DNA of 64,000 bases, from NCBI GenBank assembly GCA_964510085.1, contig CAZEAB010000002.1, positions 35,567-99,566 on the forward strand, written 5' to 3'. The first letter of the stretch is position 1. The number at the start of each line of letters is the position of its first letter. The DNA is from an uncultured Methanosarcinales archaeon. GTDB lineage: Archaea; Nanobdellota; Nanobdellia; Woesearchaeales; GW2011-AR9. Positions 4,369 to 59,631 of the stretch are shown here, in pieces. Made by a program: the position numbers and the translations under genes. The notes under the pieces were generated by a model. That model made no database searches. It was not told the origin of the DNA and saw only the letters and a program-made list of their open reading frames with translations.

Positions 4369-4680
4369 ATGGAATACATTTACGCAGCAATGTTGCTCCA
4401 CAAAGCGGGAAAAGACGTGACAGAAGACGCAGTTAAAGCTGTTTTAACAGCAGCTGGTGTAACTGTCGATGAAGCACGTGTGAAAGCACTCGTTGCAGCT
4501 CTTCAAGGTGTAAACATTGATGAAGCAATCGAGAAAGCAGCAGCAGTAGCACCTGTTGCCGCAGCAGCAGCTCCAGCAGCTGGTGGAGAAACCAAAGAGG
4601 AAAAGAAAGAGGAGAAGAAAGAAGATAACCAAAAAGCAGAAGCATCTGCAGCAGCAGGTCTTGGTGCATTATTTGGATAA
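4369..4680 (+). CDS. rpl12: 50S ribosomal stalk protein P1 (aL12)
   Basis: 103 aa. It has an Ala-rich hinge, a [11 protein letters not shown] acidic/basic region and the conserved C-terminal GLGALFG stalk-protein tail. Confidence 0.9.
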
Positions 4681-6756: not shown

Positions 6757-7995
6757 ATGACAGATAAAAACCACTTTTTTACATCAGAAAGCGTTTCAGA
6801 AGGTCACCCAGATAAAATATGTGACCAAATCTCAGACGCTATCTTAGATGCAATGATCAAAGACGACCCAACAAGTAGGGTTGCAGTAGAATGTTTTACG
6901 AAAACAGGCTTTGTTGTAGTCGGTGGGGAAGTGAAAACAAACACCTACGTAAACATACAAGAAATAGCACGAAAAACAATCCTAGACATAGGATATAACA
7001 AACCAGAATTTGGATTTGAAGGCTCAACATGCGGAGTTCTTGTAGCAATATCAGAACAATCTCCAGACATCGCACAAGGCGTTGACGAAGGAACAGGATT
7101 ACATCAAGAACAAGGAGCAGGAGACCAAGGATTAATGTTTGGATATGCATGTGACGAAACGCCAGAACTAATGCCACTATCCGCAATTCTATCTCATAAA
7201 CTAGTACAAAGACTAGCAAGTATTAGAAAGCGAGGAGAACTATGGTACTTACGACCAGATTCAAAGTCTCAAGTAACTGTTGAATACGAAAACGGCAAAG
7301 TAAAACGAGTAGATGCTGTAGTCATCTCAACACAACATCATCCAGATGTAGACCTAGAAACAATTCGAAAAGATATGATTGAACGAGTTGTAAAACCAAT
7401 TTGCCATGATTACATTGATGAGAATACAAAATACTTCATCAACCCAACCGGCAAATTCGTAATAGGTGGACCTGTAGGAGATGCGGGTTTAACAGGACGA
7501 AAAATCATCGTTGACACATATGGTGGACACGGACGTCATGGTGGCGGTTGTTTCTCTGGAAAAGATCCTAGTAAGGTAGATCGTTCAGGTGCATATTATG
7601 CTCGGTATGTTGCAAAGAACATCGTAGCAGCAGGTCTCGCAACAAAATGTGAGGTACAAGTAGCATATGCAATTGGAGTAGCAGACCCGGTTTCCATATT
7701 AATAGAAACATTTGGTACAGAAACAATTCCAAATGCCAAGATAGTGGAACTAGTAAAACAACACTTTGACTTCAAACCAAAAGCAATGATAGAGCAGTTA
7801 AACTTACGACGACCGATCTATCAGAAAACTGCTGCATACGGACATTTTGGACGAAATGATCCAGATTTCACGTGGGAGAAAACAGATAAAGCAGAATTGT
7901 TAAAACAAGAATCAAATACACCACCACAAACTGCTACTGAAGAACCACAAGAAGTTGATGGAGACGTTCCGCCTCCGTTATATCAAAGTTATTGA
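6757..7995 (+). CDS. metK: S-adenosylmethionine synthetase, bacterial/eukaryal MetK type
   Basis: 412 aa. It carries the hallmark MetK motifs GHPDK, GAGDQG and the glycine-rich loop (GGGAFSGKD-like: GGGCFSGKD). An approximately 30 aa acidic/Pro-rich C-terminal extension is present. Confidence 0.9.
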
Positions 7996-12034: not shown

Positions 12035-13273
12035 ATGAGTATGGCAAAGAAATCTACTTTTGTACAACCTGAACTCAATATTGCATTAGTTGGACACGTA
12101 GACCATGGTAAAACAACATTAACGGAAAGATTATCAGGAAAATGGACAGATACTCACTCTGAAGAATTAAAACGTGGAATTACCATTAGGTTAGGATATG
12201 CAGATTTCTCAATATACAAATGTGATAAATGTGACTTTTTTACAGGCAAAGAAAAATGTATTAAATGTAACTCTGCTACAAAACTTCAACGAAAAATCTC
12301 ATTAGTAGACGCACCTGGCCACGAATCATTAATGGCAACCATGTTATCTGGTGCATCTATAGTAAATTCAGCAATATTAATGGTGGCAGCAAATGAACGA
12401 TGCCCACAACCACAGACAAAAGAACATTTAATGGCATTACAAATCTCTGGAATTAAGAATATAATTGTAGTTCAAAATAAAATAGATTTAGTAGATGAAG
12501 AAGGAGCAATAAAAAATTATAAACAAATAAAAGAGTTTCTTGCAGACACAGATTACAAAGACGCACCAATAATCCCAATCTCAGCAAGAGCTAACGTAAA
12601 CATAGACATGCTACTTAATGCAATACAAGAACATTTCCCAACACCAAAAATAGATGCAAAAGCAGAACCATTGATGTTAGTAGCACGATCTTTTGACATT
12701 AATAAGCCAGGAATCAAACCAGCAGATTTGAAAGGTGGAGTTCTTGGTGGAACAGTTAAAGCAGGAAAATTTAAAGTTGGAGATAAAATCGAAATCAAAC
12801 CAGGATATATGGTACAAGAGAAAAATAAACTTAAATGGATTCCAATTACAACTAAAATCACAGGAATATTTTCTGGTGGTGAACCAGTAAAAGAAATTCT
12901 TCCAGGTGGAAGTATGGCACTCGGAACAGAACTTGATCCAACCATTGTCAAATCAGACAGTTTAACAGGGTCATTAGTTGGTGTACCAGGAAAATTACCC
13001 CCAGTACATTATGAAATTTCATTAGAAACACACTTACTTAAGAGAGTAGTTGGAACAAAAGACGAAGTAGAAGTAAAACCTCTTGCAAAGAAAGAAATGT
13101 TAATGTTAAATGTTAATAGTGCTGCTACAGTCGGTGTTGTAACAAATCCAAGTAAAAAGAAAACATCTTGTTTATTAAAGAAACCAATTTGTGCAAATCC
13201 TGGCGACAGAATTACTATTTCTCGTAGGGTTGGCGACAGGTTTAGATTAATTGGGTATGGAATTCTTAAATGA
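12035..13273 (+). CDS. eif2g: Translation initiation factor aIF2 gamma subunit
   Basis: It has a GTPase G1 motif (GHVDHGKTT) and the archaeal/eukaryal zinc-ribbon insertion (CDKCDFFTGKEKCIKCNS). The TATA-like 'cctttataaata' at 12009..12020 suggests the true start is the Met at 12041. Confidence 0.9.
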   Translation: MSMAKKSTFVQPELNIALVGHVDHGKTTLTERLSGKWTDTHSEELKRGITIRLGYADFSIYKCDKCDFFTGKEKCIKCNSATKLQRKISLVDAPGHESLMATMLSGASIVNSAILMVAANERCPQPQTKEHLMALQISGIKNIIVVQNKIDLVDEEGAIKNYKQIKEFLADTDYKDAPIIPISARANVNIDMLLNAIQEHFPTPKIDAKAEPLMLVARSFDINKPGIKPADLKGGVLGGTVKAGKFKVGDKIEIKPGYMVQEKNKLKWIPITTKITGIFSGGEPVKEILPGGSMALGTELDPTIVKSDSLTGSLVGVPGKLPPVHYEISLETHLLKRVVGTKDEVEVKPLAKKEMLMLNVNSAATVGVVTNPSKKKTSCLLKKPICANPGDRITISRRVGDRFRLIGYGILK

Positions 13274-13321
13274 ATTCCAAATCCTCGACTACGTCTGCGG
13301 TTATGGCATATTAAAATAAAG

Positions 13322-13451
13322 TGCCCCCGCCGAGATTTTCGCAACCAAAAGGTTATTTGAACTCGGGACCTCCAGCTTGCCAAGCGTACTACAGCCGTAA
13401 CTGCAGCATCATATAAGACTGGCGCTCTAGACCAGACTGAGCTATGGGGGC
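13322..13451 (-). tRNA. tRNA-Ile (encoded anticodon TAT) with two putative introns, at 37/38 (~34 nt) and in the T-loop at 59/60 (~20 nt)
   Basis: Hand-folded. The acceptor stem is GCCCCCA/CGGGGGC. The D-arm GCTC-AGTCTGGTCTA-GAGC is of Ile/Met type. The anticodon stem CCAGT/GCTGG is only formed after removing 34 nt, leaving loop CTTATAA. The T-arm CCGAG-TTCAAA[20 nt]T-CTCGG is split by an insert. Confidence 0.55.
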
Positions 13452-15907: not shown

Positions 15908-18025
15908 TCAAACCTTCCAACCAGTAATAATAATAGTCTCAAACAATCCTTTCTTATGCTCTATTTGAACATCAAAACCAGCAGTTGCAAACATCTGCTT
16001 TAACTTCACATCGTTCTCAATCCATGCAACGTTCGGAATCAAGTAAAAGAACTTTTCATAATCAACAAAGATAATCTCCCCACCTTTCTTCACAAACTTT
16101 CCAATAGAATTCAAAATTTGTTGAGGTTTCTGCATACTAGATAACATGCCAATAGAAACAACACCATCAACAGTATGAGGAAGGTGTACAGTAAAATCAA
16201 CTAAACTTGGTTCATGAAACGTCTGAACATGAACATGTTTTTTCACTCTCTTTTGTGTATACCCTAGTTTTGTTTTAGAAATATCAACAGCAAATAACTT
16301 ACCATGCGCCTGCACAAGATGGGCCAACTTCTCAGTTAAGATTCCAACAGAACAACCATATTCTAAAATCTGTTTACCAGCAAGTTCATTCATACTTTCT
16401 AACAATTTCTTCTTAATACCAAACGAAAAGAACAACTTCTCCGTAATCAAACTTAGCCATGCCAAACTATCTCCTGTGCTCTTAATAGCCTTCTCACTAT
16501 AAAACATCTGTACCATGAAGAAAAATGGGATACCTAAAAATAAAAATGATAATGCCAGACGAGCAATAGCCCATGCACCACCACCTTCAAGATATAACCA
16601 ATTACCAATCAACCCAAAGAATATTAATACTAATATAATTGGACCAATCGTACCAAACGGAGCTCTAAATGGCCTTTCTAACTCTTTATACTTACGACGT
16701 AATATCGGAACGGCTAACACAATCATAGACACAACAAGTAAACTAAGTAACACATAAATCAAATAGATACTCCTATACGAATCCTTCCAACCTACTATAT
16801 CTCCTCGAAAAATAAACCACGAAAATAGTAACACCATCACAGACTGGAAATATACAGCTCTATGTGGGGATTTATGTTTTGGATGTAACACCGCAAGTTG
16901 CTTGATAAACAATTTATCTCCTGCCATCGCTTGCAATAAACGAGAACCAGCAATAGGCCATGCAGCAGCAGCTCCCACAATTACAAGATACATACCAAAC
17001 ACAAGAACTTCCTTACCCGTAGCGCCTAGCGTGTTAAACGCTTGCACAGCAAACGGACGGAGATCTTTTACATAATCACTATATGGGACAGTTCCCATAG
17101 AACTAATGATATATATCACCATAATAACAGCACAAATTAAAACTCCAGATATAATCACTCTATGCAATTTTCTTGGTTCTTTAGCTTCATTTCCCATATA
17201 TGTAACAGCTTCGAAACCAAAGAACGCTTCACTAATTAGCAATAAAGATAATCCCAAGAACATGTAGATACTCGTTCCCTCATGTTGAAAGAACGGTTCA
17301 AATAACACCGTATCAAACGGACTTGTAAACCCTCCACCAGAAAATAAAGTTGGGAAATCAATAAACGACGGAATTATCATTGCTAATACTGTAACAGTAG
17401 CAATAATTCCAAACGCAAGTAACATAGTCGAACCAGCATCAATACCACGGAATGCCATATAATTTAATACAAAAATCCAAATAACCACAAAAATCATCTG
17501 TAAAATTAACGCCCTACTTCCAGTTTCAGGAATAAAATATTGAGCTGCTGCAACAATATTAAGAGCCATCCCAAAGTTTCCTGCAATCCATATACCCCAA
17601 CCGGCCATGAATGAACCAAATCTCCCATACGCTTTCTTACAATACTCATACGTACCACCGGAACTTGGAAATAACGACGCTAATTCACCAATATATAACA
17701 TCATCCAACTTGCTAACGCAAATAAAACAACCCATGCTATAATAGAAGCAGCACCAGAACTTGACATTCCCAAACCAGGAAGATAGAATAAAGAAGAACC
17801 TAAAATGGAGTTAATAACAATGAAAAGTAATACGAAAAAACCAAGTTTCTTTTTCGATGTAGCCTGCGTAAGATCTTGAGGTATTTGTGGTTTTCCGGGT
17901 ACTTTTGGTTTAACAGATTGAGTAGGAGCTGCAACTTTAGCTTTAACGGGAACCTTTGCAACGGGTTTAACTTGAGCTACAACGGGCTTTGAGTCACCTA
18001 TACCTAAGAACTTCTTGAAATCCAT
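15908..18025 (-). CDS. APC-family amino-acid/polyamine permease fused to a C-terminal class I SAM-dependent methyltransferase domain
   Basis: 705 aa. About 12 TM helices with APC-like features (GSSLFYLPG…) are followed by a soluble domain with methyltransferase motif I (ILEYGCSVGILTEKLA) and post-I acidic residues. Confidence 0.7.
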   Translation of the reverse strand: MDFKKFLGIGDSKPVVAQVKPVAKVPVKAKVAAPTQSVKPKVPGKPQIPQDLTQATSKKKLGFFVLLFIVINSILGSSLFYLPGLGMSSSGAASIIAWVVLFALASWMMLYIGELASLFPSSGGTYEYCKKAYGRFGSFMAGWGIWIAGNFGMALNIVAAAQYFIPETGSRALILQMIFVVIWIFVLNYMAFRGIDAGSTMLLAFGIIATVTVLAMIIPSFIDFPTLFSGGGFTSPFDTVLFEPFFQHEGTSIYMFLGLSLLLISEAFFGFEAVTYMGNEAKEPRKLHRVIISGVLICAVIMVIYIISSMGTVPYSDYVKDLRPFAVQAFNTLGATGKEVLVFGMYLVIVGAAAAWPIAGSRLLQAMAGDKLFIKQLAVLHPKHKSPHRAVYFQSVMVLLFSWFIFRGDIVGWKDSYRSIYLIYVLLSLLVVSMIVLAVPILRRKYKELERPFRAPFGTIGPIILVLIFFGLIGNWLYLEGGGAWAIARLALSFLFLGIPFFFMVQMFYSEKAIKSTGDSLAWLSLITEKLFFSFGIKKKLLESMNELAGKQILEYGCSVGILTEKLAHLVQAHGKLFAVDISKTKLGYTQKRVKKHVHVQTFHEPSLVDFTVHLPHTVDGVVSIGMLSSMQKPQQILNSIGKFVKKGGEIIFVDYEKFFYLIPNVAWIENDVKLKQMFATAGFDVQIEHKKGLFETIIITGWKV

Positions 18026-19870: not shown

Positions 19871-19905
19871 CTCAGGGGGAGGGCCCCTACGGGGATGGGG
19901 CAGTG
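19871..19905. other. GC-rich hairpin element in the divergent promoter region upstream of tRNA-Glu
   Basis: 'ctcagggggagggcccctacggggatggggcag' is a strong GC island in AT-rich DNA. It folds GCCCC-tac-GGGG and partly resembles the tRNA-Glu 5' end (gcccctgtgg). Confidence 0.3.
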
Positions 19906-19989
19906 CAATGTATCTATATGAAAAGTGAACCCGACTCTGCTCACAAATTAAGAAACATTTTTAAAGAGATTACCTTTTGGATTGAGTAA

Positions 19990-20108
19990 GCCCCTGTGGT
20001 GTAGTCCGGACAAATTCAAACACTGGATTCACAGGGTTTGTCTTTTGGGATAAACTATCATTCTGCCCTTTCGAGGCAGCGACCCGGGTTCAAATCCCGG
20101 CGGGGGCG
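19990..20108 (+). tRNA. tRNA-Glu (anticodon TTC) with a ~44 nt non-canonical intron in the D-arm (after ~position 21)
   Basis: Hand-folded. The acceptor stem is GCCCCTG/CGGGGGC. The D-arm GTGT-AGTCCGGACAA…TCAT matches the archaeal Glu type only after removing 44 nt. The anticodon arm is CTGCC-CTTTCGA-GGCAG and the T-arm is CCGGG-TTCAAAT-CCCGG. Confidence 0.6.
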
Positions 20109-20888: not shown

Positions 20889-21833
20889 TTATAAACTTTC
20901 CTTAAACTCCTCAAACAATGTCTTAATCTCATCAATAGATTTAACCTTCAACAACTTCCCACGTAATTCTTTACTACCCTTACACCCTTTACTAAAATTC
21001 ATTGCTTGCATTCTAATATTCGCCAATTTTATTTTATAGTTTTGAGCATACTTCAAATACTTAAAAAACGTAGTCAAACGACCTTTATCACTAACCTTCC
21101 TATAAGTTCCCTCAGATAAAAACTCATTAACCTGCGCAAACAGAAACGGATTCTTTGCAGCAGCCCTTCCAATCATCACATAATCACACCCAGTTTCAGA
21201 GATCATACGAGCAGCATCTTCTGGCGTTTCTATGTCACCATTACCACATACTGCAATTTCAACAGATTCCTTCAACTTTGTAATCAACGACCAATCTGAC
21301 TTCCCGGAATACCCTTGCTTAACAGTTCTTGGATGTAATGTAATCATCGCCAAACCTTCTTCCTCAGCAATTTTACCAATCTCTAAATACTTATCCGTTT
21401 TGTTAATACCTGCTCTTATCTTAACAGTAACTGGAACAGTAGCATGCTTCACTAACACCTTAAAAATCTCTCGAGTCAACTCTGGCTCTTGTAATAAAGC
21501 AGAACAAGCCATTGACTTTGTAATATGTGGAGCTGGACATCCCATGTTATAATCAATAATATCAAAATGTTTTGTAACTATCTTCACAGCTTCTTCTAAC
21601 TTTTCCAAATTAGAACCAAACAACTGTATAGAAATGGGCCTTTCCTTTTCAGAGAACTGAACAAACTCCATAATCTCATTTGCTTTAGCAGAAACTGCAT
21701 GTACGTTAACAAATTCAGTTACTACCAATCCCGCTCCTAATTCTTTACATATTAGACGCAGAGCTGGGTCTGATACACCTGCCATTGGTGCAAAGAATGC
21801 TTTACTTGTAAAATCTGGAAGTTTTTTCTTCAT
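20889..21833 (-). CDS. dus: tRNA-dihydrouridine synthase
   Basis: It has a TIM-barrel flavoenzyme fold (FAPMAGVSD…NMGCP…GNGDI…) typical of Dus. Confidence 0.85.
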   Translation of the reverse strand: MKKKLPDFTSKAFFAPMAGVSDPALRLICKELGAGLVVTEFVNVHAVSAKANEIMEFVQFSEKERPISIQLFGSNLEKLEEAVKIVTKHFDIIDYNMGCPAPHITKSMACSALLQEPELTREIFKVLVKHATVPVTVKIRAGINKTDKYLEIGKIAEEEGLAMITLHPRTVKQGYSGKSDWSLITKLKESVEIAVCGNGDIETPEDAARMISETGCDYVMIGRAAAKNPFLFAQVNEFLSEGTYRKVSDKGRLTTFFKYLKYAQNYKIKLANIRMQAMNFSKGCKGSKELRGKLLKVKSIDEIKTLFEEFKESL

Positions 21834-27023: not shown

Positions 27024-30000
27024 GTGGTAAATATGGAAAATCAAGAAACAATTACAATGGAAAAACAAGGACTTAAAATTTCACGATATTTTACAGAAGA
27101 CGGCAAAAATCCGTTTGATATGTACACATTTGAAAAACGAAGTTCAACAATAAAAAATCCAGATGGTTCATTAGTATTTAACATGGATGATGTAGAAGTC
27201 CCATCAACATGGACGCAAGTAGCAACAGATATCCTCTCACAAAAATATTTCAGAAAAGCAGGAGTTCCATTACGAAATAACGAAGGAGAACTTCTACTAG
27301 ATGAGAACGGAAAAGTAATAACTGGTTCTGAAACATCAATCAAACAAGTTGCTCACAGAATTGCAGGCTGTTGGAGACATTGGGGAGAAAAATATGGATA
27401 CTTTGCATCTCCACATGACGCAGATATATTCTATGACGAAATGGTATTCATGATTACTGGTCAATATGCTGCACCAAATTCCCCACAATGGTTTACGACA
27501 GGATTAAACTGGGCGTACGGCATTACTGGACCAGCACAAGGACATAGCTATGTAGACCCAACAACCAAAAAATTGGAACTCTCAAAAGACGCATACGTAC
27601 GAAGTCAGCCGCATGCGTGCTTTATTCAATACGTCAACGACGACCTTGTACGGGACGGTGGAATTTTCTCACTTCTAACACGAGAAGCACGAATTTTCAA
27701 ATATGGAAGTGGGACCGGAAGTAATTTCTCAAATTTACGTGGAAGAGGTGAGAACCTATCTGGTGGTGGTTCAAGTTCTGGTTTAATGAGTTTCTTAAAA
27801 ATATTCGACACGGCAGCAGGAAGTATAAAATCCGGTGGAACGACAAGAAGAGCAGCAAAGATGGTATGTCTTGACTTAGATCATCCAGAAATAAAAGATT
27901 TCATTTGGTGGAAGGTGAAAGAAGAAGAAAAAGTAGCAGACCTTGTTGCAGGATCTCGAATTCTTCACAAAAGATTATCTAAATTAATTGATGCAGCAAA
28001 AAATCAAGAGAACCCACTTGCAATACCAGCAGTACAAACAATGATTCGTGAAGCTGTACAAGATGAAATACCAATAAACTATTTAGTACGATCGTTAGAT
28101 TTAGCAAAGCAAGGATATGAAATGCCATTGGAAGTCTTTGACACACATTACGAGTCGGAAGCATATCAAACAGTTTCAGGACAAAATTCAAACAACTCCG
28201 TTCGAATTCCAAATACCTTCTTTCATGCTCTTAAAACAGGAAATGAATGGGAACTCAAAAGTAGAACAGATGGGAGTACTATCTCTACAGTCTCCCCACA
28301 AGAATTATGGGATGATATTGGATACTGTGCGTGGGCTTCAGCAGATCCAGGAGTGCAATTTGATACCACCATCAATGAATGGCACACCTGTCCAGCTGGA
28401 GGAAGGATTAACGGAAGTAATCCATGCAGTGAATATATGTTCCTTGATGACACAGCATGTAACCTTGCATCTATCAACTTACGAAAATTCTATGATGATA
28501 CAAATAACACATTCGACGTAGTTGGATACAGACACGCAATTCGTCTATGGACTATCGCATTAGAAATATCTGTATTAATGGCACACTTCCCCTCAGAAAA
28601 AATTGCAGAACGTTCCTATCTTTACAGGACTCTAGGTTTAGGATATGCAAATGTAGGTTCTCTATTAATGATGAAAGGAATTACATACGATAGTGATGAA
28701 GGAAGAGCAATTGCAGGAGCTATGGCGGCAATCTTAACAGGAGATTCATATGCAACCTCTGCAGAACTCGCAAAAACACTTGGAGCATTTGAAGAATACG
28801 AAAAAAACAAAGAACCAATGTTACAAGTTATCAGAAACCATAGACGTGCTGCATACAATCAAACAGATTATGAAGGATTGTCAGTTACGCCATTAGGAAT
28901 CAACCAGGAATTATGTCCTCAAAATTTACTAAAAGCAGCTCATAGTGCGTGGGATAATGCACTTGAATGGGGGACACAATACGGATTTCGAAATGCACAA
29001 ACAACAGTTATTGCACCAACTGGAACAATTGGCTTAGTAATGGATTGTGATACAACAGGAGTAGAACCAGACTATGCACTTGTTAAATTTAAAAAATTAG
29101 CAGGTGGCGGTTTCTTTAAAATCGTAAACCAATCCGTTCCAAAAGCACTTCTTAATTTGGGATATGAAGAAAATGAAGTTCGAGAGATTATTGCATATTG
29201 CCTAGGAAGAGGCACGTTTGATGGTTCACCGACAATTAACAGAGAATCATTACTTGCAAAAGGACTTGATGAAAAACAGATTTCGGCAGTTGAAAAAGAA
29301 CTTGGAAATTCAATGGATATAACCTTTATGTTTAATGAATTTACCCTCGGTGAAGAATTTTACAAAAGCAAAATTGGAAACAACAAAAACTTTCTTCACG
29401 TAATTGGTTTCACTCAAGAAGACATAACTAAAGCAAATAATTACATCTGCGGAACAATGACTTTAGAAGGAGCACCACATTTGAAAGAAGAACACTACCC
29501 TGTGTTTGATTGTGCAAATAAATGTGGAAATACTGGAACAAGGTACATCCATCCGTATGGTCACATGAAAATGCTTGCTGCAGTTCAACCATTCATATCT
29601 GGTGCAATTTCAAAAACAATTAACATGCCACGGGAATGGACTGTTGAACAAATAAAGAAAGCATACCAAGATTCATGGAAAATGATGATTAAAGCAGTTG
29701 CTCTATATCGAGACGGATGTAAATTATCACAACCTCTAAATGCAACATTAAGTGAATCATCTGAATTTGCAAAGATACTTGCAGCACCAACAACAAAGGT
29801 AACAACACAAACTGCTTCGGAACCACTTGCACAGACCCCACTAGCTGCTCTTACAAGAATCATTAAACAAGTTCAAGTTGGAATGAAAAAAGTGGCATAC
29901 CATGCAGAGATTCACACAGATGTTTTAACAAACGTTAATATTCAGATGGAATGGGTCTCACCAATTCAGAAAGTAACCATGGACGCACTTTGTAATGTTG

Positions 30001-30323
30001 TAAACCTAAGTCTGCAGCAAGGAATTTCTCCTCGATTAATAGCAGAACAAAGTTTAACCATAGAAGGTAACCCAATCATAACAGAGTTACGCGACTTTTT
30101 AATTGATTTTGAACCAACAACTACTGATTCAATACCAGCAGGTAGTACAGTTCAAGAACAAGCTCAAGAAACACAACAAGAGATACAACAAGAAACATCC
30201 ACTGTATCATTTCAAGATACAAATGAAAAAACTAAATGTGCTGGTTGTGGTGCAACACAAATGAGACAGAACGGAACCTGCATGCTTTGTGAAGTATGTG
30301 GGGATACAACCGGATGTAGTTAA
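27024..30323 (+). CDS. nrdJ: Ribonucleotide reductase class II (adenosylcobalamin-dependent), long form with a C-terminal zinc ribbon
   Basis: 1099 aa. It has the active-site Cys motifs (…PHACFIQ…, [21 protein letters not shown]) and a C-terminal CAGCG…CMLCEVCG ribbon. No ATP cone. Confidence 0.9.
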
Positions 30324-30334
30324 GGAGGAATATT

Positions 30335-32386
30335 ATGAATGCTTCAGTACAAACAACAAAAATAAAACATGTTGTGAAGCGTGATGGAAGACGTGCGGAT
30401 TTTAATATTAATAAGATAGTTGAAGCAATATTCAAAGCAGCTCAATCTGTTGGTGGGGATAATAGAGACCTTGCACTTAACTTAGCATATCAAGTTCTCG
30501 AACAGCTAGAAGAGAGATATGATGAACCAACAGTAGAAAATCTTCAAGATTTAGTTGAAAGAATTCTTATCGAAAATGGACACGTACGTACAGCAAAAGC
30601 ATACATTCTTTATCGGTACAAAAAAACTAAAGAACGAGAGCGAAGTGCAATAATTCTTGGAAAGAAAGACACCTCTGATAGTTTAAACTTTACTTATGAC
30701 GCATTAAAAATACTTGAACGAAGATATCTATTAAGAGATAAAACAGGTGTAGCAGAAACACCTCGTGACATGATTTGGCGTGTTGCACTTAATGTTGCAA
30801 AAGCAGATAGTCTCTACGGATTAACGGAAGAACAAGTTGAAGAAACAGCTTCTAAATTCTTTGACATAATGGCTTCATTAAAATTTCTTCCTAACTCCCC
30901 TACTTTAATTAACGCAGGTGCAAAAGTCCAACAACTACCTGCATGTTTTGTACTTCCTGTTGAAGATAAAATGGAAGGCATTTTCAAAACTCTTCATGAT
31001 GCTGCTGTAATACACCAACGAGGTGCAGGAACGGGATTTAGTTTTTCCCGTCTTAGACCAAAGAATGATCCCGTTAGTAAAAATAAAGGAGTTGCAGCAG
31101 GCCCAGTAGCATTCATGAACGTCTTTGATAAAGCACTCGAATCAATAAAACAAGGAGGAGTACGTCCTGGAGCGAATATGGCCGTACTTCGAGTAGATCA
31201 TCCCGATGTCATACGATTTATTGAATGTAAAAGAAACAAGAACCGACTTAAGAACTTCAATGTTTCAGTTGCAGTGACAGATAGATTCATGCGAGCTGTT
31301 GAAGAAGATAGAGAATATTTCATTAAAAATCCAAGAACCAACAAATTTTTTGGGAAGTTACGTGCAAGAGACGTATTTGCAGTTATAACTCAAAACGCAT
31401 GGAAAACAGGAGATCCCGGATTAATATTCATAGACGAAATTAATCGTAAACACCCAGCAAAACACCTTGGCGAGATAGAAACAACCAACCAGTGTGCTGA
31501 AGCACCACTTCTTCCAAACGAATCTTGTTGTCTTGGTTCTATAGATGTTAATAAATTTGTTATGAGGAACCACTTTAATTGGACTGGATTAAAAGAAACA
31601 GTTAGAACCTCTGTACACTTCTTAGATAATGCAATAGATGTCACAACATACTCCACAAAAGAAACTGAAGAAGCAACAAAACTCACGCGTAAATTTGGAT
31701 TAGGTATAATGGGCTTTGCTGACATGTTAATGAATCTTGGAATCAAATATGATTCAGAACAAGGATTGGAAATTGGCGAGAAATTAATGAAATTCATCAA
31801 AGACGCCGCATATGAAATGTCAGAAGAACTCGCAAAAAAAAGAGGAGTTTGCCCTGCATGGAAAGGATCTGAACACGAACGAGTTGGAAGAAAAATTAGA
31901 AACATGACTTGCATAGCTCTTTCACCAACTGGCACTCGAAGTATTTTTGCAGACACCTCACCGGGATGTGAACCAGCATTTGCAATTAGTTATCATAAAA
32001 CCGTATTAGACAGCAACCAACTTGTATCTCTTAACAAAGCATTTGAGAGAGTAGCACATGAAAGAGAATTTTACTCTCCTGAACTAATCAACAAAGTCAC
32101 AAAATTAGGAAGCATTCAATCAATAAAAGAAATACCAAAAGACGTACGTGACATATTTGTAACAGCACAAGATATTGACCCAGAATGGCATATACGAATG
32201 CAAGCAACTTTACAGAAACACGTGGATAACGCAATATCAAAAACAATAAATTTTCCACGAACTGCCGCAATTAGAGATGTAGAAAATGCATACCTTCTTG
32301 CATGGAAAGCAAGATGTAAAGGAATAACAATTTACCGTGATGGAAGTTATGAAGATCAAGTAATTACAATAGGAGAAGGATTATGA
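30335..32386 (+). CDS. nrdJ: Ribonucleotide reductase class II, second paralog with an N-terminal ATP-cone
   Basis: 683 aa. It has an ATP-cone (VVKRDGRRADFNINKI), active-site motifs (LPACFVLPV; TNQCAEAPLLPNESCCLGSID) and a GGAGG element before the ATG. Confidence 0.85.
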   Translation: MNASVQTTKIKHVVKRDGRRADFNINKIVEAIFKAAQSVGGDNRDLALNLAYQVLEQLEERYDEPTVENLQDLVERILIENGHVRTAKAYILYRYKKTKERERSAIILGKKDTSDSLNFTYDALKILERRYLLRDKTGVAETPRDMIWRVALNVAKADSLYGLTEEQVEETASKFFDIMASLKFLPNSPTLINAGAKVQQLPACFVLPVEDKMEGIFKTLHDAAVIHQRGAGTGFSFSRLRPKNDPVSKNKGVAAGPVAFMNVFDKALESIKQGGVRPGANMAVLRVDHPDVIRFIECKRNKNRLKNFNVSVAVTDRFMRAVEEDREYFIKNPRTNKFFGKLRARDVFAVITQNAWKTGDPGLIFIDEINRKHPAKHLGEIETTNQCAEAPLLPNESCCLGSIDVNKFVMRNHFNWTGLKETVRTSVHFLDNAIDVTTYSTKETEEATKLTRKFGLGIMGFADMLMNLGIKYDSEQGLEIGEKLMKFIKDAAYEMSEELAKKRGVCPAWKGSEHERVGRKIRNMTCIALSPTGTRSIFADTSPGCEPAFAISYHKTVLDSNQLVSLNKAFERVAHEREFYSPELINKVTKLGSIQSIKEIPKDVRDIFVTAQDIDPEWHIRMQATLQKHVDNAISKTINFPRTAAIRDVENAYLLAWKARCKGITIYRDGSYEDQVITIGEGL

Positions 32387-36940: not shown

Positions 36941-37012
36941 AAAGTGTGGACGGCAGACAAGTTAAAATCAAAGATTCACAAGCCTGCCTTACCTAATCTA
37001 AGAAATAAAATA

Positions 37013-37145
37013 TGTGGACGGCAGGGTTTGAACCTGCGTAGGCACTAAGCCACTGGGTCCTAAGCATAGCCAGGAAACTCAAGTGAGAATCCTTCCAGCC
37101 CGTTTATATGGCTCCCAGACGGAAGTGACCACTCCGGCACGTCCA
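37013..37145 (-). tRNA. tRNA-Leu (anticodon TAG) with a ~49 nt intron at a non-canonical site in the 5' side of the anticodon stem (30/31–31/32)
   Basis: Hand-folded. The acceptor stem is GTGGACG/CGTCCAC. The anticodon arm CTGGG-CTTAGGA-CCCAG forms only after removing 49 nt. The long variable arm (TGGCTTAGTGCCTAC) is of Leu type and the T-arm is GCAGG-TTCAAAC-CCTGC. Confidence 0.5.
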
Positions 37146-37287
37146 CGTGAAACATGGACTGACGGTTCCGAAAATCTAAGATTTTAGTTACCGGCACGTC
37201 CACGTAAAGAGAATAAAGCAGTGACCTCTTTAAAAACATTTCTACATTTTCATAAACTTTAAAAGAGGACCATACACAAACACCAAT

Positions 37288-45809: not shown

Positions 45810-45867
45810 GGGGCCCTGTCGTAGACGAGCCAGGTACTTCAAGGAAGTACGATCCTGGCGTGCCCCA
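45810..45867 (+). other. tRNA-like GC-rich structured element (acceptor-like stem plus extended hairpin)
   Basis: GGGGCCC…GGGGCAC terminal pairing encloses CCAGG-[GTACTTC-AAG-GAAGTAC]-GAT-CCTGG. The 5' end resembles the adjacent tRNA 5' end (GGGCCTGT). It is too short to be a tRNA. Confidence 0.3.
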
Positions 45868-45908: not shown

Positions 45909-46048
45909 CGGGCCTGCAGGGACAGTCGTTCCCTAGGGAAATTCGAACCCCGATGAGCAGGTTTCATCTTGTATGAAAACCGAAGCCTACCATTTGATAT
46001 CCTTGCAGCATGTACTGACAGGGATGCTATCCATTACATCACAGGCCC
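45909..46048 (-). tRNA. Candidate tRNA-Arg (anticodon TCG, tentative) with three putative introns (~25/26, 37/38 and 59/60)
   Basis: Hand-folded. The acceptor stem is GGGCCTG/CAGGCCC. The D-arm is ATGT-AATGGATA-GCAT. The anticodon arm GTAGG-CTTCGG[17 nt]A-CCTGC and T-arm CGGGG-TTCGAA[19 nt]T-CCCTG form only after removing inserts of ~32, 17 and 19 nt. Confidence 0.4.
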
Positions 46049-46092: not shown

Positions 46093-47046
46093 TTACTCTA
46101 ATAAACGTCTCACAACCATCGTAGCATAACTTCCCTTTCCAAGAACAAAACGTAATTTCACAATATCATCACCCAACTTCTCAACAACTAAATCTTTAAC
46201 ATCAACAAACACATCTCTTAATTCTCCCTCCATACTTAATTCTGGGATTTGTTTAATTATAAAATCTCGATGTGTAATGTTCTCTTTTTTCATAATCTCT
46301 CTTATAATCTCTCTAACGTCTTCAAAAACTAAACTAGAATCAAATCCAACTAATGGAACTTTCTCCCCTACTTTCTCTTTTACAAAAACTAACTTCCCTA
46401 ACTTATACTCAACCTTTTTAACAACATCAAAAGAAGATAAATACCTACTAACACACTCATTCCACAAATAACTTTGATACGCATGCACATAAAACCTCAA
46501 CATTCGCAATGGAATCTTTCTCAAAGCACTAATATAATCATTTTTCACAACAGATAACTCTAACAACTCACACGCTCCCTTAAAATCTTTCTTCACAATC
46601 GCTTTCCCAATCTTCTCATTCTGACCACCAAATCTCTGCTCATCATAATAATTTACAACAAAATCCACTTCTTCAACTTCTCCAGAATAATCTCTCACAA
46701 CAATCTCAAACTTATTACCCTCAAGATCTCCCAACGAAATTGGAATATCTCCAAACCCTTTTAACTTTACAGAAACATTCTCAATATCCAACTTTTCAAT
46801 CTTATCTTTACCAACACTAAAAATGGACATCATCTGCTCTGTGACAGCATGTTTATCTTTTGTACCAGCAAACCCAATTTTCTTTTCGGGAACTCCTACC
46901 TGTCGAGAAATCTGCTTCACAACATCTAACGTATTTCTATTCTTTTTCCGTACAAGAACATATGCATACCTTCCAGACGTAGCAAACTTCACAGTACTAA
47001 TTTCTTTCACAATAAAATCTTCTGGTTTTTGCTTAAGCACATACAT
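46093..47046 (-). CDS. truD: tRNA pseudouridine synthase TruD/Pus7 family
   Basis: It has the N-terminal F-x-V-x-E-I block (EDFIVKEI) and the catalytic GTKDKHAVTEQ motif. The probable start is the Met at 47046 (MYVLKQ). The ORF track extends to 47106. Confidence 0.7.
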   Translation of the reverse strand: MYVLKQKPEDFIVKEISTVKFATSGRYAYVLVRKKNRNTLDVVKQISRQVGVPEKKIGFAGTKDKHAVTEQMMSIFSVGKDKIEKLDIENVSVKLKGFGDIPISLGDLEGNKFEIVVRDYSGEVEEVDFVVNYYDEQRFGGQNEKIGKAIVKKDFKGACELLELSVVKNDYISALRKIPLRMLRFYVHAYQSYLWNECVSRYLSSFDVVKKVEYKLGKLVFVKEKVGEKVPLVGFDSSLVFEDVREIIREIMKKENITHRDFIIKQIPELSMEGELRDVFVDVKDLVVEKLGDDIVKLRFVLGKGSYATMVVRRLLE

Positions 47047-58735: not shown

Positions 58736-58758
58736 TTTATATCTCTTAATGTAAAAAG

Positions 58759-58896
58759 CGGCTCTGACCAGACTTTCGAAAAAGTGAACTTTTTCTAAAT
58801 CATCAAGTACACTTGATACTCGAACTGGTGACCTCGAGGTCGCTGTTGGTTTCCACCACTAACAGCCCCGCGCTCTACCTACTAAGCTACAGAGCC
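58759..58896 (-). tRNA. tRNA-Asn (anticodon GTT) with two putative introns (37/38, ~19 nt; T-loop 59/60, ~46 nt)
   Basis: Hand-folded. The acceptor stem is GGCTCTG/CAGAGCC. The D-arm is GCTT-AGTAGGTA-GAGC. The anticodon arm is CGGGG-CTGTTA[19 nt]A-CCTCG. The T-arm is ACCAG-TTCGAG[46 nt]T-CTGGT. Confidence 0.55.
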
Positions 58897-59506: not shown

Positions 59507-59631
59507 GGACCTGTGGCCCAGTGGATAAGGCGATTCCCTCCTAATACTCAAGTAGAGAGGAATAGATCGGGGGTTCGAAACAGCAGACTGCATTCTCTAT
59601 GCTGTATGCTGCGCAATTCCTCCCAGGTCCG
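59507..59631 (+). tRNA. tRNA-Arg (anticodon CCT) with two putative introns (37/38, ~14 nt; T-loop 59/60, ~38 nt)
   Basis: Hand-folded. The acceptor stem is GGACCTG/CAGGTCC. The anticodon arm is ATTCC-CTCCTA[14 nt]A-GGAAT. The T-arm is GGGGG-TTCGAA[38 nt]T-CCTCC. Confidence 0.55.

Follow-up and report, generated by a model that had tools for sequence, protein, structure and literature searches.

A basic question raised by the stretch of archaeal DNA analysed here (64 kb in length, referred to below as the window) is how its host reads the isoleucine codon AUA. The canonical archaeal solution is tRNA-Ile2(CAU), which, with its C34 modified to agmatidine by TiaS, reads AUA without reading AUG. 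Within 54 non-overlapping long ORFs of the window (16,341 codons), ATA occurs 354 times, or 21.7 per 1000 codons compared with 25.0 per 1000 for ATG, and accounts for 27% of the isoleucine codons, making a dedicated AUA decoder indispensable. A preliminary description of the locus had proposed a tRNA-Ile gene with a genomically encoded UAU anticodon at positions 13322–13451, interrupted by an intron between tRNA positions 37 and 38. Read directly on the minus strand, a tRNA gene begins and ends precisely at those coordinates, with G1 at 13451 and the discriminator base A73 at 13322, and ARAGORN returns a 77-base tRNA-Ile(tat) when both insertions present in the gene are deleted in silico.

The layout of the gene is given in Table 1. 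While the 37/38 intron had been described correctly, a second intron of 20 nt in the T-loop, at 59/60, had been left unmentioned. After removal of both insertions the sequence folds into a cloverleaf with stems of 7, 4, 5 and 5 bp and with 7-nt anticodon and T loops, and the tertiary positions are all present in the spliced sequence (U8, A14, G18-G19, U33, G53, T54-T55-C56, A58, C61 and G15:C48). The acceptor stem contains one mismatch, A7·C66, and CCA is absent from the gene sequence. The TTTAAAAA and CTTTATTTT elements that flank the gene would presumably act as its promoter and terminator, respectively. Orthologues of the gene (see below) end in T-runs too, and four of them (L003, L007, L012 and L015) have a CTTTTAAA box ~30 nt upstream, at the same distance as the box of the window gene; for the remaining one, L008, the stretch examined stops short of this region.

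Table 1 Features of the tRNA-Ile(UAU) gene and other tRNA genes of the window.
Feature	Position	Strand	Description and basis
Whole tRNA-Ile(UAU) gene	13322–13451	−	130 nt, three exons and two introns; direct reading
Exon 1, tRNA positions 1–37	13412–13451	−	In order: acceptor 5′ strand GCCCCCA, U8 A9 (TA), D-arm GCTC/AGTCTGGTCTA/GAGC, G26 (G), anticodon stem 5′ strand CCAGT, loop CTTATA; direct reading, 5′ half aligned by Rfam tRNA model
Anticodon T34 A35 T36 (UAU)	13413–13415	−	Plus strand reads ATA
Intron 1, canonical 37/38	13378–13411	−	34 nt, TGATGCTGCAGTTACGGCTGTAGTACGCTTGGCA; fold, junction table, register test
Exon 2, positions 38–59	13356–13377	−	In order: A38, anticodon stem 3′ strand GCTGG, variable loop AGGTC, T-stem 5′ strand CCGAG, T-loop TTCAAA
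Intron 2, T-loop 59/60	13336–13355	−	20 nt; fold, junction table, register test
Exon 3, positions 60–73	13322–13335	−	In order: T60, T-stem 3′ strand CTCGG, acceptor 3′ strand CGGGGGC, A73
Likely archaeal TATA box TTTAAAAA	13477–13484	−	−33 to −26 from tRNA position 1
Oligo-T stretch CTTTATTTT	13313–13321	−	Directly after A73; likely transcription terminator
tRNA-Glu(UUC)	19990–20108	+	…CTGCC CTTTCGA GGCAG…, ~40-nt D-loop insertion
tRNA-Leu(UAG)	37013–37146	−	ARAGORN -i call correct
tRNA-Arg(UCG)	45909–46048	−	140 nt; ARAGORN Arg(tcg) after in-silico splicing; default tools miss it
tRNA-Asn(GUU)	58759–58896	−	37/38 intron and long 59/60 intron; ARAGORN after in-silico splicing
tRNA-Arg(CCU)	59507–59631	+	37/38 intron and long 59/60 intron; ARAGORN after in-silico splicing

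The gene is easily overlooked. Over its full length, the window yields no tRNA with default ARAGORN (no intron detection) and no RNA family with Rfam at the gathering score; with intron detection (-i), ARAGORN calls two other tRNAs in the window and misses the tRNA-Ile(UAU) gene. The two insertions explain why default ARAGORN and the Rfam gathering score pass it over. The Rfam tRNA model scores the unspliced gene at 24.2 bits, below the gathering score of 29 because of the insertions, and the posterior probability of the alignment is high throughout the 5′ half as far as CUUAUA. A custom insertion-tolerant scan recovers the gene at 13322–13451; such scans are permissive and return mostly noise, and matches were kept only where the tRNA context was clear. 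Since ARAGORN (-i or not) and Rfam both miss the gene, automated annotation of genomes of this kind would report a missing AUA decoder. Two GC islands considered as tRNAs were rejected, the one at 4521–4605 being Ala-rich coding sequence and the one at 19876–19935 folding no better than shuffles.

The window (34.5% G+C) is identical to positions 58,757–122,756 of JGI metagenome contig Ga0104999_1000095, which has a length of 133 kb; the genes of the window recur in Logan and ENA assemblies, and the sequence of the tRNA gene is identical in independent JGI, Logan and ENA assemblies. Adjoining the tRNA gene in convergent orientation is the gene for aIF2-gamma (12035–13273), whose nearest relatives among species-representative genomes are from Woesearchaeota MAGs (75–81% identity), followed by other DPANN; judged by this marker, the host is a Woesearchaeote (DPANN). 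Orthologues of the tRNA gene are found in five Woesearchaeal loci (L003, L007, L008, L012 and L015), 1–4 kb downstream of aIF2-gamma and on the opposite strand. A BLAST search of aIF2-gamma loci with the precursor found L007 only, and a pattern search added the other four. Several public records titled 'uncultured Methanosarcinales archaeon' or 'Desulfurococcales' (L004, L007, L008, L013 and others) encode an aIF2-gamma that is 75–80% identical and share the tRNA-Ile(UAU) neighbourhood, and their titles look taxonomically wrong. In the L008 locus the tRNA-Ile(UAU) gene occurs twice (~12441–12456 and ~17561–17576), at a spacing of exactly 5,120 bp, as part of a duplicated block; the block reflects either a genuine tandem duplication or an error of assembly. 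The L008 tRNA carries an insertion in the D-loop but lacks one in the T-loop.

For a wider comparison, a degenerate pattern covering the 5′ half of the gene and ending in CTTATA was run against metagenome contigs, giving at least 120 loci. The matches listed are a mixture of intron-free bacterial-looking genes, intron-bearing eukaryote-like genes and 14 archaeal-type genes, and these last, together with the window gene and L007, form a comparison set of 16. When the 16 spliced sequences are aligned, 99.1% of the cells form standard pairs, a value that is partly built in because the parser located the exons of the homologues by their stem pairing. Not affected by the parser are the compensatory changes, seen in 13 of the 21 pairs, and the slid controls, in which displacement of the 3′ partners cuts pairing to 25–48% (controls at most 47.6%). 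None of 500 shuffles matches the pairing and covariation values. The sole unpaired cell of the window gene is 7:66, whereas L007 has a perfect acceptor stem; the anticodon stem of L007 differs from that of the window gene by compensatory changes (CTGGT/GCCAG vs. CCAGT/GCTGG). Insertions are present in L007 at the same two sites, and these are unrelated in sequence and length (49 and 28 nt) to those of the window gene. This covariation, along with the ARAGORN call after splicing, bears out the tRNA gene of the preliminary description.

The other matches deserve a brief mention. Of 121 parsed UAU-pattern matches among those listed (loci L058–L177), 74 are intron-free and bacterial-looking, with CTTATAA or CTTATAC loops and GGTTCGA T-loops, which suggests that uncultured bacteria, too, commonly have tRNA-Ile genes with a TAT anticodon. 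A further group among the listed matches is eukaryotic-looking and has 37/38 introns.

Which anticodon the mature tRNA would carry depends on the register in which the first intron is removed. For example, if the T-loop insertion alone is deleted, ARAGORN shifts the junction by three bases and calls Ala(tgc) with an intron after position 34, and other registers in the window gene would yield GGC or UAC anticodons. At 37/38 the sequence forms a relaxed bulge-helix-bulge motif with the central helix CUUA:UUGG (C32:G, U33:G, U34·U, A35:U), bulges UAU and CAA, a G:C pair closing the inner helix and a 9-bp hairpin beyond, which leaves three out of four pairs in the central helix and both pairs that flank it. 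The window gene alone leaves the register ambiguous, and the homologues were therefore compared by sliding both cuts together in the 15 archaeal-type genes that have an anticodon-loop intron (the window gene plus 14 archaeal-type homologues). With the cuts at 37/38, the genes average 3.73 out of 4 central-helix pairs (4/4 in 11 genes, 3/4 in four including the window gene) and have both flanking pairs in 15/15, compared with at most 2.67 helix pairs and 1.33 flanking pairs for every other register. The anticodon UAU is obtained in 15/15 genes only at registers on or beside 37/38; the remaining ones would make plainly orthologous genes variously Ala, Ser, Thr, Val or Leu tRNAs. The preliminary description had allowed for a different splice junction yielding another anticodon, and this is answered by the loss of helix pairs and the inconsistent anticodons away from 37/38 in the 15 genes. 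Moreover, the intron-free homologue L073 has the architecture predicted for the mature tRNA, including a CUUAUAA loop, and scores 72.5 bits on the Rfam tRNA model. By the register test and L073, the predicted mature anticodon is UAU within the loop CUUAUAA, in agreement with the original proposal. The window gene, its five Woesearchaeal orthologues and the independent assemblies all have T at position 34. The U34·U mismatch of the splice helix is common to the window gene, L007 and L003. We rejected a canonical tRNA-Ile2(CAU), since the gene has T34 (13415, minus strand) in place of C34.

The second intron was analysed in the same manner. At 59/60 the window gene has a relaxed hBH motif with the central helix UUCA:CGAA (3/4 pairs, with an A57·C mismatch), bulges AAU and AAU, and an AACC/GGUU inner hairpin beyond. 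Among the six genes with a T-loop insertion, this register gives a mean of 3.67 out of 4 helix pairs and is the sole one to yield TTCAAAT in 6/6; the family helix is TTCA:TGAA where the window gene has CGAA, and the motif is classed as relaxed hBH because only 3/6 have the inner closing pair. As judged from the sequence, both introns match the bulge-helix-bulge pattern, in which two 3-nt bulges on opposite strands are separated by a 4-bp helix and the cuts fall after the second base of the bulge.

As to the amino acid, A35, U36, A37, A38, A73, C4:G69 and U12:A23 are all present in the gene and match the E. coli Ile identity set, and the tRNA body as a whole (A73, A37, A38, U33 and the standard tertiary positions) would fit an isoleucine tRNA. 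A tRNA-Ala is defined by the G3:U70 pair; an alanine identity was rejected, as the gene has C3:G70 instead and the UGC register is not conserved.

These features suggest the following pathway. Transcription from the gene's own TATA-type promoter would give a 130-nt precursor, in which the archaeal splicing endonuclease would cut the two relaxed bulge-helix-bulge motifs, releasing the 34-nt (37/38) and 20-nt (59/60) introns. The positions of the introns come from comparison with the homologues, and cleavage at these positions is predicted. An RNA ligase would then join the three exons, and CCA, for which we propose addition since none is encoded, would complete the tRNA. No EndA or RtcB was found among the 36 window ORFs scanned. 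The 76-nt product (CUUAUAA, A37, A73) would be charged by IleRS and read AUA, replacing tRNA-Ile2(CAU) together with TiaS and its agmatidine by analogy with Nanoarchaeum, Korarchaeum and ARMAN. In our view the locus is very probably a functional AUA-decoding tRNA-Ile gene of a Woesearchaeote, with a genome-encoded UAU that would stand in for tRNA-Ile2(CAU) plus TiaS. Counting against this reading are the imperfections of the two central helices (U34·U, A57·C), the A7·C66 mismatch and the Rfam score of the unspliced gene, which lies below the gathering score.

Could the genome encode the canonical system as well? A search by tblastn with the A. fulgidus TiaS sequence, validated against PDB 4RVZ/3AMT, gave no match in the 64-kb window, in the 177 loci (1.55 Mb) or in 16 kb of flanks. 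Pfam shows no TiaS domain in any of the 36 ORFs of the window that were scanned, and a CAU tRNA was likewise not found in the window, the flanks or the comparison loci. These negative results agree with a TiaS-less genome. For the host itself the search covered ~80 kb of the genome (window plus 16 kb of flanks), and the tRNA is in itself compatible with a situation in which a genuine tRNA-Ile(UAU) is an extra isoacceptor alongside tRNA-Ile2(CAU) and TiaS encoded elsewhere. We consider this unlikely, given that every archaeal case described pairs UAU with the loss of both CAU-Ile2 and TiaS (PMC3239211, PMC3575796), and that neither TiaS nor a CAU tRNA turned up in the window, the flanks or 853 kb of related DPANN loci. 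By analogy with those cases, it is reasonable to infer that TiaS would be absent from the host genome.

It is less likely still that the locus is a decaying pseudogene, in which the weakened splice motifs and A7·C66 would block maturation. Along with those of L007, L096 and L127, the motifs of the window gene are indeed the weakest in the family, and the window gene supplies the sole unpaired 7:66 cell. However, its invariant tRNA positions are all intact, promoter-like and terminator-like signals have been kept, and U34·U is also found in the orthologues L007 and L003, whose acceptor stems are perfect. Relaxed motifs are cut by DPANN endonucleases (PMC3239211, PMC5829648), and all six tRNA genes of the window are similarly interrupted. 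Finally, no other AUA decoder was seen, and the 54 ORFs use the codon 354 times. A different register with another mature anticodon (Ala-UGC as called by ARAGORN once the T-loop insertion is removed, Ala-GGC or Val-UAC) has next to no chance of being correct and is effectively refuted by the register tests and the CTTATAA of intron-free L073 as we read them: three bases away (k=−3) the window gene taken alone also forms 3/4 pseudo-helix pairs, but the family mean falls to 2.67 helix pairs and 0.87/2 flanking pairs, and clear orthologues would become Ala (3), Ser (10) and Thr (2).

The conservation of the first intron raises the separate possibility that it has a role of its own. Among the matches listed plus the orthologues, 19 of 20 archaeal-type tRNA-Ile(UAU) genes have kept a 37/38 intron, as have the genes of Korarchaeum and ARMAN-2, and its 3′ end always pairs with C32–A35 of the anticodon loop. 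In eukaryotic tRNA-Ile(UAU) the wobble pseudouridine depends on the intron. By analogy with those intron-dependent pseudouridines, the intron could be needed for modification of U34 and/or U36 on the precursor, letting TiaS-less archaea avoid reading AUG as Ile. We regard this as a long shot, because DPANN tRNAs are intron-rich in general and six out of six tRNAs of the window are interrupted. The state of U34 is of some importance, as haloarchaeal Ile tRNAs mutated to U34 bind AUA, AUU and AUG (PMC3895270); Mycoplasma mobile, by contrast, has an unmodified UAU tRNA, which does not misread AUG (PMC3575796). Natural archaeal UAU tRNAs would be good material for learning how a U34 tRNA avoids AUG.

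How does the gene relate to known systems? In a survey of 167 archaeal genomes, tRNA-Ile(UAU) was present in only two, those of Nanoarchaeum and Korarchaeum, the Korarchaeum gene being intron-bearing (PMC6000648). In 2011, all three ARMAN (DPANN) lineages were reported to have tRNA-Ile(UAU) and to lack tRNA-Ile(CAU) and TiaS; the pre-tRNA-Ile(UAU) of ARMAN-2 has a 25-nt 37/38 intron that is cut in vitro by the ARMAN-2 endonuclease, and a relaxed intron at 59/60 is found in a different tRNA of ARMAN-2 (PMC3239211). A 2013 study linked tiaS-lacking archaea to TAT-anticodon tDNA-Ile and reported 371 such tDNAs from metagenomes (PMC3575796). DPANN archaea including a Woesearchaeote have multi-intron tRNAs, and predictors leave their tRNA sets incomplete (PMC5829648). 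Our own literature search (TiaS, agmatidine and UAU in DPANN or Woesearchaeota) found nothing beyond the ARMAN paper, and no description of the trait for Woesearchaeota. The preliminary description had called UAU a rare alternative reported for Nanoarchaeum and Korarchaeum, which is correct for these two but understates its occurrence in view of ARMAN (PMC3239211) and the metagenomic TAT tDNAs (PMC3575796). Likewise, the suggestion of a lineage marker holds in the sense of a clade trait (five related Woesearchaeal genomes), but this trait lies within an already known DPANN pattern.

The closest parallel is ARMAN-2 (Candidatus Micrarchaeum acidiphilum; PMC3239211), which shares with the window gene a DPANN host, a genome-encoded UAU, a 37/38 intron and the proposed replacement of tRNA-Ile(CAU) and TiaS, the same genomes also holding other tRNAs with relaxed hBH 59/60 introns. 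It differs in that its 25-nt intron has a strict hBHBh′ motif, whereas the 37/38 motif of the window gene is relaxed (U34·U), and the window tRNA-Ile(UAU) carries a 59/60 intron as well and belongs to a Woesearchaeote. Nanoarchaeum equitans and Korarchaeum cryptofilum likewise have natural archaeal UAU Ile tRNAs in tiaS-less genomes (PMC6000648; PMC3575796; PMC3895270), but they are from other lineages and have no T-loop intron described in these papers, the comparison being one of published descriptions. The canonical tRNA-Ile2(CAU) does the same job but needs C34 and TiaS, in contrast to the T34 of the window gene. Eukaryotic nuclear tRNA-Ile(UAU) is similar in its anticodon and its obligatory 37/38 intron that pairs with the anticodon, and differs in having pseudouridine as the wobble base (PMC3575796), another body sequence and no T-loop intron. 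Mycoplasma mobile is another prokaryote that reads AUA by UAU without a C34-modifying enzyme, with t6A37 present in its tRNA-Ile2(UAU); this tRNA is, however, bacterial and intron-free with an unmodified U34, and IleRS and the ribosome are thought to be co-adapted (PMC3575796).

Given the precedents in ARMAN, Nanoarchaeum and Korarchaeum, the window gene extends a known pattern and is no surprise. What appears from its sequence to be particular to it is the presence of two relaxed introns in one tRNA-Ile(UAU) gene, together with the shared U34·U splice-helix mismatch. With this gene, the use of UAU to read AUA is extended to the Woesearchaeota, which are a very large lineage within DPANN. This supports the notion that this strategy is widespread, and perhaps ancestral, in DPANN rather than an oddity of a few genomes.

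The interruption of tRNA genes is not confined to tRNA-Ile(UAU). Five further tRNA genes were picked up in the window by the insertion-tolerant scan (Table 1), bringing the number to six, all of them interrupted and none reading CAU; a 59/60 intron is present in 4/6. For these six genes, ARAGORN -i gets Leu right, miscalls Glu as Arg and misses four. The miscall, a tRNA-Arg(tct) of poor structure, was rejected after deletion of any D-loop segment of ~40 nt made ARAGORN call Glu(ttc). Three insertions interrupt the tRNA-Arg(UCG) gene, one of 17 nt at 37/38, one of 19 nt at 59/60 and a third (~30 nt) that separates the D-arm from the anticodon stem; directly upstream of this tRNA gene lies a gene for a TruD/Pus7 pseudouridine synthase (46093–47046). 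In the AT-rich spacer beside this tRNA gene there is a GC-rich branched hairpin (~45820–45866, on either strand: GGGGC…GCCAGG…CCUGGC…GCCCC) with a fold z-score of −2.2 to −2.5 and no Rfam family at E<0.7, which may be a small non-coding RNA. Around the tRNA-Leu(UAG) gene (36945–37203, minus strand), the first 13 nt of the gene (GTGGACGTGCCGG) recur ~57 nt upstream and its last 12 nt (CTGCCGTCCACA) ~56 nt downstream; these repeats may be vestigial integration sites or traces of a gene rearrangement.

Three other loci of the window are worth recording. A Dus-family dihydrouridine synthase is encoded at 20889–21833 (minus strand), and a bacterial-type three-domain S-adenosylmethionine synthetase (MetK) is present in this archaeal genome at 6757–7995 (plus strand). 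Finally, two adjacent ribonucleotide reductase genes are located at 27033–32386 (plus strand), one for a class II B12-dependent enzyme (1096 aa) and the other for a protein with an ATP-cone domain.
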